Shown here in pieces: positions 5,045-53,500 of a stretch of DNA of 64,000 bases (position 1 is its first letter; every line of letters starts with the position of its first letter). The DNA comes from an uncultured Clostridia bacterium (GTDB taxonomy: Bacteria; Bacillota; Clostridia; Christensenellales; Aristaeellaceae): the NCBI GenBank assembly GCA_934636425.1, contig CAKUAV010000001.1:6072-70071 (forward strand). Reading direction: 5' to 3'. A program made the translations under genes and the position numbers. A model generated the notes under the pieces. It saw nothing but the letters and a program-made list of their open reading frames with translations, searched no databases and had not been told where the DNA came from.

Positions 5045-5262
5045 GAAAGTTGGAGGGGAAACAACACGGCAAAAAGCGCTGCCCTCAGGCTCTCGAACTT
5101 TTAATCATGCCCAGCGGCGTATGCGGGACGATTTGCGCGCCCGGGAAATCGGCAAAAACTGAAAATGGTGACTGGAAGGCAAAACTGCCGACGATTCAAA
5201 TCAAAGATTTGATCCGTCGTTCATGCCGGATTGGCATTGGGCCGGTCAAACGCATTCTTCGG
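5045..5262 (-). repeat. copy of the ~200-bp dispersed intergenic element (divergent 5' half)
   Basis: The reverse complement aligns with 7483-7680 and 47082-47280. The shared core GCCGCTGGGCATGATTAAAAGTTCGAGAG is the reverse complement of 5090-5118. Upstream matches include CAGTTTTTGC and CGCAAATCGTCCCGCAT. Confidence 0.55.
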
Positions 5263-5410: not shown

Positions 5411-7108
5411 ATGTCCAGGAAAATCACAGCTCTGCTGATCGCCGCGCTGCTTCTCGTTCCCCTGCTGAGCGTCTCGGCGCAGGAATACGCGCCGCTTGAG
5501 CCGATGGCCGAGCCGATTACGCTCAGAGTGGTTCACAGCTACAGCCTCTCGTCACTGGCCGGCGTCGGCGAAGGCATAACGCCCGAGAACGGCCTGTGGA
5601 ACGACAATGTTCTTGAGGATCTCAATATACGATTCGAATGGATGTGGACGGTGGATACAGAGCAGTGGGAAAAGAAGTTCCAGCTCTCCATTGCGTCCGG
5701 CGATATCCCCGATCTGCTCCGGCTGAACGAGGTTCATTTCCGTCAGTTTGTCGAGATGGGCGCGCTGCGCGATCTGACGAACGCCTACAAGACATATTCC
5801 CTCAAAGAGATGCTCGCCATGGACGACGCCGCGGGCAACCGGCCGACCCGGCAGGCCACCGTCGACGGCGCTCTGCTCGGCGTTCCTCTCTTCGATGACA
5901 ACCATTCCACGATGTACCTGCTCATGTACCGCAAGGACTGGGCGGACGCGCTGGGCATCGAAGCGCCCAAGACCATCTATGACGTGATGGATATGTGCGT
6001 GCGCTTCGGCACCGAGGATCCCAATCAGGACGGCGCTGCGAACACCGACGGCCTGGCAATGCAGGGCGATCCCTTCGCGGGCGCTTTCGGCTCGCTCGCA
6101 TTCTTCCAGAGCTTCGGCGGCTATCCGCAGTTCTGGGTCGCCGATGAGAGCGGCGAAATCGTTCCCGGCGTGCTCATGGACGGCACATACGAAGGCCTGA
6201 AGGCGCTGCGCGAGCTCTATGAAAAGGGCGGCATCGCCCAGGATTTCGCCACGCTGTCCGGCGACAACCTGAACGAGGACGTCATCAGCTCGCAGGTCGG
6301 CGTATTCTTCGGAATGTGGTGGAATCCCGCCTATCCCGGCCCGCAGAACATGGACTATGACGAGAAGGCGGAATGGACGGTCATGCCGCTGCCCGGCCTC
6401 ACCGAGGGCACATACGGCAAGTCCGTCTGCAACGAAAACATGGTGACGTATTACAACTGCGTTTACGAAAAAGCGCCCGAGCGCGCCGATGAAGCGCTTG
6501 TCAAGCTGCTGAACTACCACTATGTGCATATCGCGCCCGTCGACGACGCCATATGGCCTCAGAAAGAAGTGACCGACGATCCCGAAGTTCTGGAGATGCG
6601 TCAGGAGCAGTCCAAAGCCGAGCAGCTGGCCGGCAAGGTCTGGAACTGGCTGCCCGTGCAGACATGGCCCTCCGGCATCAACGTCCAGCAGGCCTACAAC
6701 GCCTACAACGCCTGGCATGAAAACGACCTGAGCTATCTGCGCAGCTCAACCGACAAGGACTGGTATGACAAGACCGTCGCCCATCACAGCCGGGACACCT
6801 CCCGCTGGACGCGCGGCACGACCGCCGGAATGTGGCTGAGCCGCACGTCCCCCGATGGCGGCATCATGACCACCGTGCGCATGCGCAATGAGGGTCACGT
6901 CGTCTACAATGTCTATTACGGCCCGGCGACCGAGTCCGAGCAGCAGTTCAAGTCCACGCTCAAATCCATGGCGCAGGAGTACTTCGTCAACTTCATCATG
7001 GGCAATGTCGCCGTTGACAGCTGGGACGCTTTCAAGAACGACTGGCTGGCTCAGGGCGGTCAGGACTGGTGGGACGAGGTCAAGGTTTCCTACGCCGCGC
7101 TTCACTGA
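5411..7108 (+). CDS. ABC transporter extracellular solute-binding protein (orphan, no adjacent permease genes)
   Basis: RBS GGAGGTG is present. The signal peptide is MSRKITALLIAALLLVPLLSVSAQ. This is a 565-aa Trp/Asp/Tyr-rich, family-1-like SBP sequence. Confidence 0.85.
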   Translation: MSRKITALLIAALLLVPLLSVSAQEYAPLEPMAEPITLRVVHSYSLSSLAGVGEGITPENGLWNDNVLEDLNIRFEWMWTVDTEQWEKKFQLSIASGDIPDLLRLNEVHFRQFVEMGALRDLTNAYKTYSLKEMLAMDDAAGNRPTRQATVDGALLGVPLFDDNHSTMYLLMYRKDWADALGIEAPKTIYDVMDMCVRFGTEDPNQDGAANTDGLAMQGDPFAGAFGSLAFFQSFGGYPQFWVADESGEIVPGVLMDGTYEGLKALRELYEKGGIAQDFATLSGDNLNEDVISSQVGVFFGMWWNPAYPGPQNMDYDEKAEWTVMPLPGLTEGTYGKSVCNENMVTYYNCVYEKAPERADEALVKLLNYHYVHIAPVDDAIWPQKEVTDDPEVLEMRQEQSKAEQLAGKVWNWLPVQTWPSGINVQQAYNAYNAWHENDLSYLRSSTDKDWYDKTVAHHSRDTSRWTRGTTAGMWLSRTSPDGGIMTTVRMRNEGHVVYNVYYGPATESEQQFKSTLKSMAQEYFVNFIMGNVAVDSWDAFKNDWLAQGGQDWWDEVKVSYAALH

Positions 7109-7439
7109 TCACAGCGCCTGAGCGCGCGAAAAAGGGAACGCCGCGCCTCTGAAGGCTTCATGAAAGCGCGCGCTTCAATCCATCAGATTCGGCCAGGCTC
7201 ATTTTCCGGCGGCGAAGCCCTTCCAATTCCGCGTCCGGGATCAGCGCCGCTCGGGCTGCGCGGCGGCTCCGTTCCCGCATGGCCGCAGCCCTTTTGAGAC
7301 GCGCCGCAGCATGGCATCGGGCGAGATCGCCTGACGAGCAGGCGGCCTGCAGCGCCGCTTCATCAAGGGCATTGCGCCCGGCTCCGTCAGGGAGCGAGGG
7401 CACAAAAAGCCCATATCTGTCCGATTTTCCCGCGAAACA

Positions 7440-7482
7440 GACGCGCGGCGCACCGGAATTTCTCCCGATGCGCCGCGCGTTT
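7440..7482 (+). repeat. left copy of a 43-bp direct repeat holding a 12-bp-stem hairpin
   Basis: GACGCGCGGCGCACCGGAATTTCTCCCGATGCGCCGCGCGTTT is identical 43/43 to 7681-7723. The stem is ACGCGCGGCGCA / TGCGCCGCGCGT with a 16-nt loop. Confidence 0.95.
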
Positions 7483-7680
7483 GCCTGTCAAAAAAGGTCT
7501 TGACAAGCTGGTGAACGAGGATTCAAGCTTTCCGCCGCGTGCTGCCCTCTCCAGTTTTTGCTCTGGAAATGGGATTTTTCGCCGCAAAATGTCACCCCGC
7601 ATCATACATGCCGCTGGGTACGTTTGAAATTTGAGAGGGTTTCGGCACTCTCGAACTCTCTGAATGCTTTTCGGTACTCT
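7483..7680 (+). repeat. 198-bp dispersed intergenic element, best-preserved copy (MITE-like or sRNA-like)
   Basis: About 70% identical by eye to the reverse complement of 47082-47280. It starts ..GTCAAAAAAGGTCTTGACAAGCTGGTGAA and ends ..GCTTTTCGGTACTCT. There is an internal hairpin TTTGAGAG-N10-CTCTCGAA at 7630-7655. Confidence 0.8.
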
Positions 7681-7730
7681 GACGCGCGGCGCACCGGAAT
7701 TTCTCCCGATGCGCCGCGCGTTTTTTTGTT
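7681..7730 (+). terminator. right copy of the 43-bp repeat; canonical Rho-independent terminator
   Basis: It carries the same 12-bp stem as 7441-7480. Here the stem is followed by TTTTTTTG. Confidence 0.8.
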
Positions 7731-7887: not shown

Positions 7888-8214
7888 TCACCAGCGCGTC
7901 ATGTTCCTTTCGAATTTGGCGGTGTAGGCCGCCTTCAGCTCCTCCGGCGATACGCCATAGCAGAGCAAAACGTCGCAGTAATACATCAGCACGTCGGCCA
8001 GCTCCTCGACCAGATGCGCCCGCAGCGCCGGATCGCTCGCCGCGCGGTCGCCGCCGTTTTTCTTGACAATATCGATGACCTCGCCGATCTCGCCGACCAT
8101 CCACAGCAGCTTGTTCCTGCCCGTCTCCGCGTCGACCGGCTCCCATATGCGGCTGTACTTTTCCTGAAGGGCGCGCTGCATATCCAGCATTTCGCCGACG
8201 CCGAAATCCGCCAT
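7888..8214 (-). CDS. MazG-like nucleotide pyrophosphohydrolase (small all-alpha NTP-PPase)
   Basis: The 108-aa sequence has the motif LWMVGEIGEVIDIV...LVEELADVLMY, matching the EExxE/D signatures of the MazG/YpjD family. Confidence 0.8.
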   Translation of the reverse strand: MADFGVGEMLDMQRALQEKYSRIWEPVDAETGRNKLLWMVGEIGEVIDIVKKNGGDRAASDPALRAHLVEELADVLMYYCDVLLCYGVSPEELKAAYTAKFERNMTRW

Positions 8215-9440: not shown

Positions 9441-9750
9441 GCGCCTGTAACGCGCCTGCGGAAAACAACCTCATTCCCCCGCAAACAATCCATCACCCAT
9501 GAAAAGCGCTGAGAACCAGAATGCGTAACGGCACGGCGCGACTGCGCGAAAACGCCATCATCCCGCAAGCAATCCATCACCCATGAAAAGCGCCGAATTC
9601 CAGAATGCGCAACGGTACGGAACGGCGCGCCTGTGGAGAACGCCCCTATCCCTGCAAACACTCCATCGCCCATAAAAAACGCAGAATGCCGGAATGCGTA
9701 AGGCACGACGCGCCCCGCGAAAAAACGCCCTCATTCGCCGCCCGCCGTCA
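9441..9750. repeat. tandem repeat, about 3.5 units of 85-89 bp
   Basis: Units begin near 9457, 9543, 9632 and 9717. The conserved core is GCAA(A/G)CAATCCATCACCCATGAAAAGCGC...CCAGAATGCG(T/C)AACGG, and GCAAxC recurs at 9481, 9565 and 9654. Confidence 0.85.
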
Positions 9751-9802
9751 AGAACGCCCAGCCCTTCCTGCCGGAAAGCCAAATGCGGTCATCCCGCACA
9801 TC

Positions 9803-10339
9803 TCATCGCACATCGCGCCACGCCTTGGGCGCGTCGCCCGGATCGGCGGCCTCGCGCAGGAACTTGACATACCACGTCACGCCCAGCCACCTGCCCATCT
9901 TATAGCCGGTGCGCGGCATGACGCACATCCTCTCATAGCCCAGCTTTTCATGGAAGGCGCAGCTGGCGGCGTTTTCCTCGGTCACGAGGGCGTAGGCGCA
10001 GACATAGCCCATGCGCCCAAGCGCGTCCTCGAGCAGCGCGTAAAACCGCCGCCCGACGCCCCGTCCATGCCACCTTTCGCCGATGTAGACCGACAGATCC
10101 GCGTCCCAGCAGTAGGCGCGGCGCTCAAAGGCGCGGTCGGCGTAGGCATAGCCTATGATTTCGCCGTTTTCCTCCGCCACGAACCACGGAAAATCCCGCG
10201 CAATCCGTTCGAACCGCGCCGCAAACGCCTCGAGCGAGGGCGTTTCGTATTCGAACGACACGGTGGTCTCTTCGACATACGGCCTGTAAATCTCCCGCAT
10301 GGCCGCAACGTCCGCCCTCGTCGCTTCTCTGTAAATCAT
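9803..10339 (-). CDS. GNAT family N-acetyltransferase (phosphinothricin-acetyltransferase-like)
   Basis: The 178-aa sequence has the acetyl-CoA motif RGVGRRFYALLEDAL and the arrangement ...VTEENAASCAFHEKLGY. Its start overlaps the cca stop by 4 nt. Confidence 0.85.
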   Translation of the reverse strand: MIYREATRADVAAMREIYRPYVEETTVSFEYETPSLEAFAARFERIARDFPWFVAEENGEIIGYAYADRAFERRAYCWDADLSVYIGERWHGRGVGRRFYALLEDALGRMGYVCAYALVTEENAASCAFHEKLGYERMCVMPRTGYKMGRWLGVTWYVKFLREAADPGDAPKAWRDVR

Positions 10340-11727
10340 GCCTGTTCCTCCGCCCGTTCGGGTTCGTCGTCCCGCGCTGCGGCTTCCCCGTCCTGCGCAG
10401 CGACCGCGCCGGGCGTCTCAATGCTGTCGGCCGATGCTTCCGGCGCGTTTTCGGCGGACTGTGCGCCCTTTCCGCGCCGCCTGCGCTTCTTTTTGCCCGC
10501 ATTCGCCTTTTCCGAGGCGGCCTTTTCGGCGCGCGCGTTGAGCTCCTGCCGCACGGCGTCCAGAAGCGCCTGCTTTTCATTGGGCAGCGCGCCCTCCATG
10601 ACGCGCTCGAGCAGGCCGTTCAGGCATTCGCCGATCATGCGGCGCGTCACGCCCACGCGGAACACGTCGTCGCCATTGACGGCGAGCTGCTTCAGGCTCA
10701 CGCAGTCGCCCTGCTGAACGATCATGTGGCACAGCGCCGTGACGTGCGCGCTCTGGATTTCGGCCAGACCCAGCATCAGCTCCTCGCCGCACTCTCCGGC
10801 CAGGCGGCGCATCCCGATGCGGTCGGCGGGCATGGGCGTTTTGACGCGCGAAATGACGCTCTCAATGAACTTGCGGCTGACCTTGCTGGTCTTGAGCCGC
10901 GCCACGCATTCGCGCGCCGACTCGGCGGGCAGATCGCACAAAAGCGCCGCCAGACGCAATTCGGGCACGGGCGACACCAGCGCCATGCGCCGCGCGGCGA
11001 GCATGTACTCGTCCCCGGACAGCGCGCGCAGCTCGGGCATAATGACCTCGAACACATCGCGGTATTCGAGCGCGATCGATTCGGCGCGCGCGCCGCAGAG
11101 CAGCTTTTTCAGCTCGGTGAGTATGCGCTCCACGGCGATTTTCGAGAGGTTTTCGCGCTCCAGATGCACGGCGCGCGCCGTACCCGCCTCGATGTCGAAA
11201 TCGAGAACGGAGGAAAAGCGCAGCGCGCGCAGTATCCTCAGCGCGTCCTCGTCAAAGCGCACCTCGGGCTCGCCCACGCAGCGGATGATTCTGTGCTCGA
11301 GATCCTCCTCGCCGCCCACATAGTCGATCAGCCCCGCCTGCTCGCTCCAGCACAGCGCGTTAACCGTGAAATCGCGCCGCTGAACATCCTCGTAGAGATT
11401 GCCGGTGAACACCACGTCGTCCGGATGGCGGCCGTCCTCGTATTCGCCGTCGATGCGGAATGTGGTGATCTCGATGGGCTGGCCGTATTTTATCAGCGTC
11501 ACAGTGCCGTGCTTTAAGCCGTTGGTGACCAGCCGGTCTCGGGCAAAGAGCGCCATGACCTCATCGGGCAGCGCATTGGTGGTCACGTCGTAGTCGCTGG
11601 GCGTTTTGCCGAGCAGAGAATCGCGCACGCTGCCGCCCACGATATACGCCTGATAGCCCGCGCCGGCGAGCGATTTGACCGCATACTGCGCGGATCGGGG
11701 CAGATGGATTTTCATATCGTTCATCAC
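10336..11727 (-). CDS. cca: CCA tRNA nucleotidyltransferase with a charged low-complexity C-terminal tail
   Basis: The N-terminus (YIVGGSVRDSLLGKTPSDYDVTT) is the class II nucleotidyltransferase motif. The RRDFTVNAL motif is present. The last ~80 aa are Lys/Arg/Ala/Glu-rich. Confidence 0.9.
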   Translation of the reverse strand: MMNDMKIHLPRSAQYAVKSLAGAGYQAYIVGGSVRDSLLGKTPSDYDVTTNALPDEVMALFARDRLVTNGLKHGTVTLIKYGQPIEITTFRIDGEYEDGRHPDDVVFTGNLYEDVQRRDFTVNALCWSEQAGLIDYVGGEEDLEHRIIRCVGEPEVRFDEDALRILRALRFSSVLDFDIEAGTARAVHLERENLSKIAVERILTELKKLLCGARAESIALEYRDVFEVIMPELRALSGDEYMLAARRMALVSPVPELRLAALLCDLPAESARECVARLKTSKVSRKFIESVISRVKTPMPADRIGMRRLAGECGEELMLGLAEIQSAHVTALCHMIVQQGDCVSLKQLAVNGDDVFRVGVTRRMIGECLNGLLERVMEGALPNEKQALLDAVRQELNARAEKAASEKANAGKKKRRRRGKGAQSAENAPEASADSIETPGAVAAQDGEAAARDDEPERAEEQA

Positions 11728-47049: not shown

Positions 47050-47081
47050 TGTGAAAAGCAAAGCCGCGTCTCACCGCGGCA
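47050..47081 (-). terminator. hairpin plus U-tract at the 3' end of the inverted element copy (also the left copy of a 20-bp direct repeat, 47062-47081)
   Basis: Minus strand reads GCCGCG-GTGAGA-CGCGGC, followed by TTTGCTTTTCACAG. The 20-mer AGCCGCGTCTCACCGCGGCA is repeated exactly at 47281-47300. Confidence 0.7.
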
Positions 47082-47280
47082 CAGACTGCCGAAAAACCTT
47101 CGAAGAACTGAGCGGATCGAAACCCTCTCGAATTTTCAATCGTACCCGGCGGCGTGTACGGGGAATGCAGGACGATTTTTGAGGCGGAAACTCCCATTTC
47201 CAGAGTAAAAACTGGAGAGAGGGGGCACGGCAGGGAGCTTGCATACCCCTTCACCAGCTTGTTAAGACATTTTTTGTCTG
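47082..47280 (-). repeat. 199-bp dispersed intergenic element, inverted relative to the 7.5-kb copy
   Basis: The reverse complement aligns end to end with 7483-7680. Shared segments include GTCTTAACAAGCTGGTGAA, CTCCAGTTTTTACTCTGGAAATGGGA, GCCGCCGGGTACGATTGAAAATTCGAGAGGGTTTCG and TTTTCGGCAGTCTG. Confidence 0.8.
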
Positions 47281-47300
47281 AGCCGCGTCTCACCGCGGCA
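47281..47300. repeat. right copy of the 20-bp direct repeat (hairpin) flanking the element
   Basis: AGCCGCGTCTCACCGCGGCA is identical 20/20 to 47062-47081. Confidence 0.95.
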
Positions 47301-51981: not shown

Positions 51982-52055
51982 ATTCGGATGTTCTCCTGTT
52001 GTCCGCTGAATAATCGCGCCTGAAAAGCGCGCGGCGGCAAATCGCCGCACTTATC

Positions 52056-52293
52056 GTTCACGCGCAAAGCGCATCGCTTCCGGCATATCTCTTCCACGCG
52101 CCCGCCGCGCCATTCACGCGCAAACGCACGCTTCCGGCGCATCGCTCCCACGCGCTCGCCGCGCCGTTCACGCGCAAAGCGCACGCTTCCGGCATATCGC
52201 TTCCACGCGCCCGCCGCGCCGTTCACGCGCAAAGCGCACGCTTCCGGCATATCTCTTCCACGCGCCCGCCGCGCCGTTCACGCGCAAAACCAT
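52056..52293. repeat. tandem repeat, 4.3 units of 54-56 bp
   Basis: The unit is GTTCACGCGCAAAGCGCACGCTTCCGGCATATC(G/T)CTTCCACGCGCCCGCCGCGCC. Units start at 52056, 52112, 52166, 52221 and 52276 (the last is partial). Units 3 and 4 differ at a single base. Confidence 0.95.
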
Positions 52294-53317: not shown

Positions 53318-53500
53318 TTGCGATTGAGACAAAAAACAGCAATGCAGCGAACTCATGCGCAAAAACAGCGGCAAGCCGGTGGACAGGGAATCAAGCTCCC
53401 CCGCCGCTGCCCCACCATAAACGCCGCCGGGTACGACTGGAAATTCGAGAGATCTTTCACCCTCTCGAGCTCTCCAATATTTTTCGACAGTCGCCGCGCC
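53318..53500 (+). repeat. copy of the dispersed intergenic element with internal indels
   Basis: It shares GAGACAAAAAAC, GCAAGCCGGTGGACAGGGAATCAAGCTCCC, the core GCCGCCGGGTACGACTGGAAATTCGAGAG (53423-53451), the hairpin TCGAGAG-N10-CTCTCGA and the end TTTTCGACAGTC. It lacks the central ~60 nt found in the 7.5-kb copy. Confidence 0.65.

Follow-up and report, generated by a model that had tools for sequence, protein, structure and literature searches.

Locus A, at about 7.5 kb of the 64-kb window (the whole stretch of DNA that was analyzed), lies between two convergent genes, one on the + strand encoding a 565-aa solute-binding protein and ending at 7108, and one on the − strand encoding a 108-aa MazG-like protein and ending at 7888. 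The solute-binding-protein stop is followed by ~330 bp of GC-rich sequence (7109–7439) that holds no convincing gene and reaches to a terminator hairpin; an 81-aa ORF on the − strand (7158–7403) lies inside this stretch. The 43-mer GACGCGCGGCGCACCGGAATTTCTCCCGATGCGCCGCGCGTTT, which contains the hairpin, was found only twice in the window, at 7440–7482 and 7681–7723, in both cases on the + strand with no mismatch. The sequences just beyond the two copies are unlike (aaaca and gcctg around the left copy, actct and ttttg around the right copy), and the duplication was matched in 0 of 100 shuffled sequences, which confirmed the exact 43/43 direct repeat described in an earlier note on this DNA. 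The features of the locus are as follows.

7440–7482, + strand: left copy of the 43-bp target-site duplication, consisting of the whole terminator hairpin extended by 1 nt (5′) and 2 nt (3′), then TTT
7483–7680, + strand: copy A of the MITE (198 bp), a short form of the family, absent from the sister-strain contig L064
7681–7727, + strand: right copy of the 43-bp repeat (7681–7723) with the remaining T-run, a complete intrinsic terminator by appearance

Folding of each 43-mer copy gave a 13-bp GC stem with a 3-bp inner stem; the hairpin noted earlier in each copy was thus recovered, with a stem of 13 bp rather than the 12 bp given for it. The left copy is followed on its 3′ side by TTT and then GCC, and the right copy by seven Ts, at a site that was also flagged by the terminator scan, in agreement with the earlier observation that only the right copy keeps a long T-run. 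The right copy, in which a GC-rich stem-loop directly precedes the T-run, is thus a predicted intrinsic terminator. At the corresponding site of L064 the T-run comprises six Ts. Partial read-through of the T-poor left hairpin into the element and termination at the right hairpin would be likely consequences. Copy A begins with GCCTGTCAAAAAAGGTC, an IS1182-type terminal repeat, and ends with ...CTTTTCGGTACTCT, and only spurious ORFs cross it. In four sister strains (L060, L062, L065, and L067), the two 43-mer copies carry different SNPs, and those of the left copy include A>G together with T>C, paired substitutions by which the stem is preserved.

Contigs coding for an identical MazG-like protein were collected as a sister-strain set for locus A. 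Most of them contain the element and both hairpins. In L064, alignment with the window showed that the intergenic region is ~240 bp shorter, with one hairpin and without the element, in the order ...CCCGCGAAACA-[one hairpin]-TTTTTTGTTCTTCA, and when the left and right flanks of the window were aligned to L064, they overlapped by exactly the 43-mer. Because L064 has a single hairpin and no element, the 43-bp repeat is a target-site duplication. This contig is an orthologous empty site of the kind that the earlier note had proposed to look for, and its single 43-mer bears out the proposal that the duplication around a dispersed element is the footprint of an insertion. In principle, L064 could equally have arisen by precise deletion between the 43-bp repeats; the single-hairpin state exists regardless. 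Since the two 43-mer copies are equivalent products of gap repair, neither of them can be singled out as the original terminator.

The earlier note had also assigned the 198-bp sequence to a dispersed family with members at 47.1, 5.1, and 53.4 kb, and all three were found (copies B, D, and C, respectively):

47281–47300, − strand: 20-nt hairpin repeat TGCCGCGGTGAGACGCGGCT on the left of copy B, as seen in element orientation
47082–47280, − strand: copy B of the MITE (199 bp; CAGACAAAAAATG...TTTTTCGGCAGTCTG), with 76% identity to copy A
47062–47081, − strand: second 20-nt hairpin repeat, on the right of copy B, then TTGCTTTTC
~53367–53492, + strand: copy C, internally deleted and degenerate (HMM positions 15–63 joined to 173–255), with no clear flanking repeat
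~5090–5150, − strand: copy D, a divergent core-only fragment (HMM positions 145–213), present in all sister-strain contigs including L064

Copies A and B represent a short form that lacks one of two similar hairpin modules. When an empty site for copy B was sought, both neighboring proteins led to occupied loci only. Two other repeats were seen in the window: a 55-nt GC-rich unit in 4.3 tandem copies (52055–52288, 91% match), and ~2.9 tandem copies of an 84–89-nt unit (9478–9723, 75% match) that overlap the start of an ORF at 9605–10717.

Family loci were collected using a degenerate core motif, and a profile was then built from good copies. The collection comprised 59 loci, many of them at contig ends, in ~9 MAGs that belong to uncultured Clostridia of the human gut and the rumen, and 26 further loci in metagenomes retrieved with the same core motif; a comparison of the MITE with a plasmid collection gave no match. 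The elements are ~198–256 bp long. The profile has a 256-nt consensus with the boundaries 5′-CAGCTTGTCAAAA...TTTTCGACAGTCTG-3′, the element boundaries were read as CAGCTTGTC...GACAGTCTG, and these, an inverted-repeat pair (CAG..TGTC / GACA..CTG), are nucleotide-identical in many loci. Length variants were observed in L072, L075, L089, and L091, some with an internal tandem duplication (profile positions 2–117, then 59–256). The contigs of the rumen MAG RUG11247 (L006, L014, L029–L031, L033, L037, L040, and L042) break at approximately profile position 172, which suggests that several element types in this genome share only the last ~85 nt. In addition, three tandem copies of a hairpin-containing unit with a 71-nt period lie just to the right of a MITE copy in L020 (161–337), and the hairpin of this unit also flanks the left MITE end in L023, from the same MAG.

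Locus-specific direct repeats of 19–44 nt bracket 22 of ~33 copies with both ends intact, so that copies elsewhere are mostly flanked by their own duplicated hairpin, a point that the earlier note had asked to be checked. In the first set, from MAGs, 19 of 23 full copies were bracketed by such repeats with 85–100% identity, and in the second, independent set, from metagenomes, 3 of ~10 were. The repeats adjoin the element ends with a gap of 0–2 nt and fold as GC hairpins (dG −12 to −32; L050, with a dG of −3, is a weak exception among the 19), each repeat consisting of a stem-loop and 1–3 nt. The 40 nt adjoining the element had a median fold energy of −20 (left) and −21 (right) kcal/mol, compared with −9 kcal/mol in control windows 120–160 nt away from the element ends. 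Moreover, 89% of left junctions reached −12 kcal/mol or lower, compared with 24% of controls (p = 3e-7), as did 81% of right junctions, compared with 29% of controls (p = 6e-13). The target hairpins are diverse and have no homology to the element ends. Their A- or T-runs occur on either side, indicating that both orientations relative to terminator polarity are used.

An IS1182-type transposase was searched for by tblastn, using as query ISKpn6, an annotated IS1182-family element from an E. coli plasmid, and a weak match was obtained in the metagenome contig L090. Transposases of this type were confined to L090 and L076; tblastn with the transposase gave none in the window, and the MAG loci with most copies had none. 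Likewise, no autonomous copy was recovered from end motifs placed 1–3 kb apart in the collected loci, from a crude DDE-motif regex, or from inspection of L012 and L020. The matching ORF in L090 (10626–12056, 476 aa) scored 399.5 bits on the NCBIfam model NF033551, IS1182 family transposase (cut-off 270), and contains the Pfam domains DUF772, DDE_Tnp_1, and DDE_Tnp_1_6. It lies in a 1.49-kb IS whose ends, CAGCCTGTCAAAGAAG and CAGCCTGTCAAAAAAG, are the same as the MITE termini, and relatives of its transposase are abundant in gut metagenomes.

Comparison of the MITE ends (CAGCTTGTCAAAAAAG and CAGACTGTCGAAAAA) with those of the IS copies extended this match. The IS ends in L090 and L097 read CAGCCTGTCAAA(G/A)AAG, and the 5′ end of copy A is 17/17 identical to positions 3–19 of the IRL of these two copies. 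In L104, the IRL (CAGACTGTCGAAAAA) is 15/15 identical to the MITE 3′ terminus, and the IRR is CAGCTTGTCGAAGAA. Each IS end consists of a terminal 9-mer followed by a subterminal hairpin of variable sequence; the similarity between MITE and IS is confined to the terminal 15–18 nt, and the MITE interior is unrelated to the IS. All IS ends examined adjoin hairpins. The IS in L104–106 (one site on three contigs) is flanked by a 24-nt hairpin repeat (AGCACCGGCGCATTTGCCAGTGCA), and that in L116 (IRL CAGCTTGTCAAAAAA) by a 23-nt hairpin repeat (AATCACCGCATCTGTCGGTGATT) with a T-run; the IS in L117 has a 5-bp repeat beside a weak hairpin, and the copies in L097, L107, and L090 have a different hairpin at each side.

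Between positions 10590 and 13512 of L090, the IS, a 277-aa gene, and a MITE are bracketed as one block by a 27-nt hairpin repeat (AACTTTGCGCCAGGTTGGCGCAAAGTG, 27/27), i.e. the hairpin to the left of the IS is the same as that to the right of the MITE 2.9 kb away. The outer termini of the block are one IS end and the MITE 3′ end, which form an inverted pair, and two other hairpins adjoin the IS and MITE ends that face inward. The unit looks like a 2.9-kb composite transposon built from IS and MITE, and the arrangement provides circumstantial evidence that the transposase may use MITE ends.

About one third of the full MITE copies have two different hairpins abutting their ends, or a hairpin at one side only. 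Some of these copies may have arisen at tandem-hairpin targets; if both strands were joined at the 5′ foot, the element would simply come to lie between the two adjoining hairpins. Others may reflect recombination between copies or composite transposition, for which L090 is a concrete example, or chimeric joins in low-coverage assemblies; the coverage of several contigs with unmatched hairpins is 2–4×. A search for reciprocal recombinant flanks yielded only the L090 composite and one shared hairpin (left of L084, right of L018). For the IS in L097, which lies between two different hairpins, the nitroreductase neighbor led to closest relatives in which the genes are ordered differently, and the flank has been rearranged.

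Taken together, the 198-bp insert is very probably a MITE of the IS1182 family that inserts by structure, is mobilized in trans by an IS1182-family transposase, and duplicates whole terminator hairpins. There is direct evidence for polymorphic insertion, for duplications as long as the hairpins, for terminal repeats in common with an IS1182-family IS, and for the same behavior of that IS. The element has no transposase gene, is small, and occurs in multiple dispersed copies, and the duplicated sequence is single in the unoccupied site. From the shared ends, we infer that mobilization in trans is performed by the DDE transposase of the ~1.5-kb IS. Targets are chosen by structure, from the shape of the DNA and not from its sequence, and the whole palindrome is duplicated. 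In the proposed mechanism, each transposon 3′-OH would be joined to the target where a stem-loop has its 5′ foot. Where the target is one palindrome, for example an intrinsic terminator, it would probably be extruded as a cruciform and would offer two such joining points on opposite sides. The stagger would then equal the palindrome, and gap repair would leave a copy of the hairpin with 1–3 nt on either side of the element. The arrangement hairpin-MITE-hairpin at 7.5 kb would thereby have arisen from the one terminator that followed the solute-binding-protein gene. The earlier note had proposed an undescribed non-autonomous element that integrates at terminator stem-loops; insertion and hairpin duplication stand, and the IS1182-family termini remove the suggestion that such an element would be mechanistically unprecedented.

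The earlier note had alternatively invoked a replication or template-switch process. Here a fork stalled at a terminator hairpin would switch to another copy of the repeat and back, which would insert the repeat and copy the hairpin a second time, with no transposase involved. The insertion sites are indeed hairpins, which are known to stall polymerases, and at some loci (e.g. L001 and the L052 copy at 2027–2399) the differences between the two repeat copies cluster in the loops. However, many loci have exactly the same inverted pair of element boundaries, these ends also delimit an IS that encodes a transposase and shows the same flanking duplications, and element ends and targets share no homology that could guide switching. 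This process, which is not needed, is very improbable. Mobilization by another integrase acting on folded hairpins, either a Cas1/casposase-like enzyme or a tyrosine recombinase, was also considered, and both enzyme classes are known at palindromic sites. Cas1–Cas2 duplicates an often palindromic repeat via staggered attacks on its two borders, which is formally analogous to the outcome seen here. A comparable analogy is offered by casposons. Against such an enzyme, the duplication length tracks each hairpin (19–44 nt) without a ruler, the MITE termini match an IS whose sole gene encodes a DDE transposase of the IS1182 family, and the neighborhoods of the IS copies showed no cas1 or recombinase gene. 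We consider this origin extremely improbable.

The MITE interior was predicted to fold into six to seven hairpins. Conservation of this fold was evaluated in 32 copies with the minimum-free-energy structure of one copy as reference, as the RNAalifold consensus was poor. In total, 90.9% of structure cells can pair, compared with 37–51% when partners were slid by 1–3 columns, a fraction that the one-copy reference biases; the counts of compensatory changes are free of this bias. Changes at both sides were found for 25 pairs, compared with 8–15 in the slid controls, and for 119 cells, compared with 43 ± 5 in shuffles (0 of 500 reached 119) and 21–38 in slid alignments. Helices 3–5 contain several independent compensatory variants in the alignment. 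Outside the weak terminal helix 8, G–U pairs (110) and A–C mismatches (112) were about equally common. Conserved G–U pairs are thereby no sign of top-strand RNA folding, and because G–U is no commoner than A–C, the conserved pairing is strand-symmetric, as for DNA-level hairpins rather than RNA. The constraint on the internal hairpins is equally compatible with hairpins in DNA that matter to a structure-specific transposase.

These hairpins raise the alternative that the element is primarily a structured small-RNA or 3′-UTR RNA module, with the transposon ends a mere vehicle and the terminators serving its expression and termination. Their conservation with many independent compensatory changes is in favor of such a module, as is the placement of copy A, which follows a + strand gene in the sense direction, with a T-poor terminator copy on one side and a T-rich copy on the other. 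On the other hand, copy B is antisense to the sole gene able to read into it, both orientations occur relative to the A/T-runs of the hairpins, and the pairing is strand-symmetric, with G–U about as frequent as A–C. Rfam provided no family: the window gave no match at the gathering score, and three consensus-copy loci gave only chance-level matches at E ≤ 1, so that the insertion reading of the earlier note passes this check as well. An intron or ribozyme signal was likewise absent from the window and these three loci, and no tRNA or tmRNA gene was found in the window. There is also no credible promoter. The TTGACA at 7501–7506, read earlier as a −35-like box of a small-RNA cassette, is real, and was rejected as a promoter as it has no acceptable −10 and belongs to the terminal palindrome. 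The cassette proposal finds no support as an explanation of the duplication, although the element does carry conserved hairpins, and an RNA module likewise leaves the duplication itself unexplained. A primary role as RNA is improbable.

Another reading is somewhat less doubtful, although still unlikely: the element would be a mobile structured-nucleic-acid cassette and not a passive MITE, with a compensatorily maintained module of five or six hairpins between borrowed IS1182 ends. If so, landing at terminators and regenerating one on each side would install the module in host 3′ regions. The module might then be a structured RNA (a 3′-UTR stabilizer, a processing site, or an sRNA source) or, alternatively, a DNA-level cruciform array used by a structure-specific transposase or by the host.

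For the IS1182-family MITE favored here, the empty site, dozens of independent insertions, and an autonomous IS provide cleaner evidence for structure-directed insertion, a mode of integration with little documentation so far, in which the length of the duplication (19–44 bp) is set by the shape of the target and not by the enzyme, an outcome that had been only hypothetical for IS1272. In their hosts, the MITEs create tandem terminators, rewrite 3′ UTRs, and can pair with an IS to move the genes in between, as in L090. They also break short-read assemblies of these gut Clostridia and could mislead terminator, sRNA, and repeat annotation. Furthermore, with the transposase and its ends, DNA integration specific for cruciforms or hairpins can be tested in a defined system.

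Several known systems resemble the present one in part. Group IIC introns use extragenic hairpins and terminators as safe landing sites. Extragenic hairpins serve in the same way for REP/BIME-targeting ISs such as IS1397 and IS110/IS1111 members (PMC1525189). In contrast to the MITE, these introns and ISs insert beside or inside the palindrome without duplicating it, by means of a ribozyme/RT or a DEDD transposase. The analogy with Cas1–Cas2 and casposons concerns staggered joining at the repeat borders followed by repair that duplicates the repeat; however, these enzymes are of another class, their duplication length is fixed by a protein ruler, and the MITE family shows neither a fixed-length duplication nor a linked cas1 or other cas gene. 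ISKpn6, the neighbor of blaKPC in Tn4401, is related to the partner transposase at the family level, but its terminal repeats (CTAGGAGTCTGCGCGGCAGA) are unrelated and the copy inspected has no hairpin repeat. For the IS1182 family as a whole, ISfinder gives direct repeats of 0–60 bp.

Some IS1182 members target palindromes, according to Siguier et al. (2015) as quoted in PMC4923244 and PMC5678879. IS1272 and TnSha1, which belong to the same transposase family, target terminator hairpins without sequence specificity (PMC4923244) and insert at the hairpin base (PMC4923244, PMC5678879). As in the present family, their targets are stem-loops, often terminators, with no sequence consensus. However, IS1272 deletes the stem-loop, and Furi et al. 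concluded the same for TnSha1 (PMC5678879, PMC4923244): all or part of the stem-loop is removed and there is no duplication, whereas the MITE duplicates the whole stem-loop. The stem-loop target chosen by structure is thus shared, and the deletion is not, as most MITE copies show an intact duplication. The duplication outcome corresponds to the hypothetical pathway b in Fig. 13 of Wan et al. (PMC5678879). The hosts differ as well, IS1272 and TnSha1 being elements of staphylococci and the MITE a 200–256-bp non-autonomous derivative in high-GC gut Clostridia. MITEPye1 of Paracoccus yeei also has IS1182-family terminal repeats, is non-autonomous and intergenic, and is predicted to fold, but it has 4-bp direct repeats and 1–3 chromosomal copies (PMC11578231), whereas the present MITE has hairpin duplications of 19–44 nt and many copies per genome; the two have no sequence relationship. 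The searchable literature, whose coverage is incomplete, contained no description of this MITE family or of its terminator-length duplications. In summary, hairpin targeting by IS1182 elements and an IS1182-related MITE are already known, and what is notable here is the duplication of a whole terminator together with internal hairpins that are compensatorily kept.
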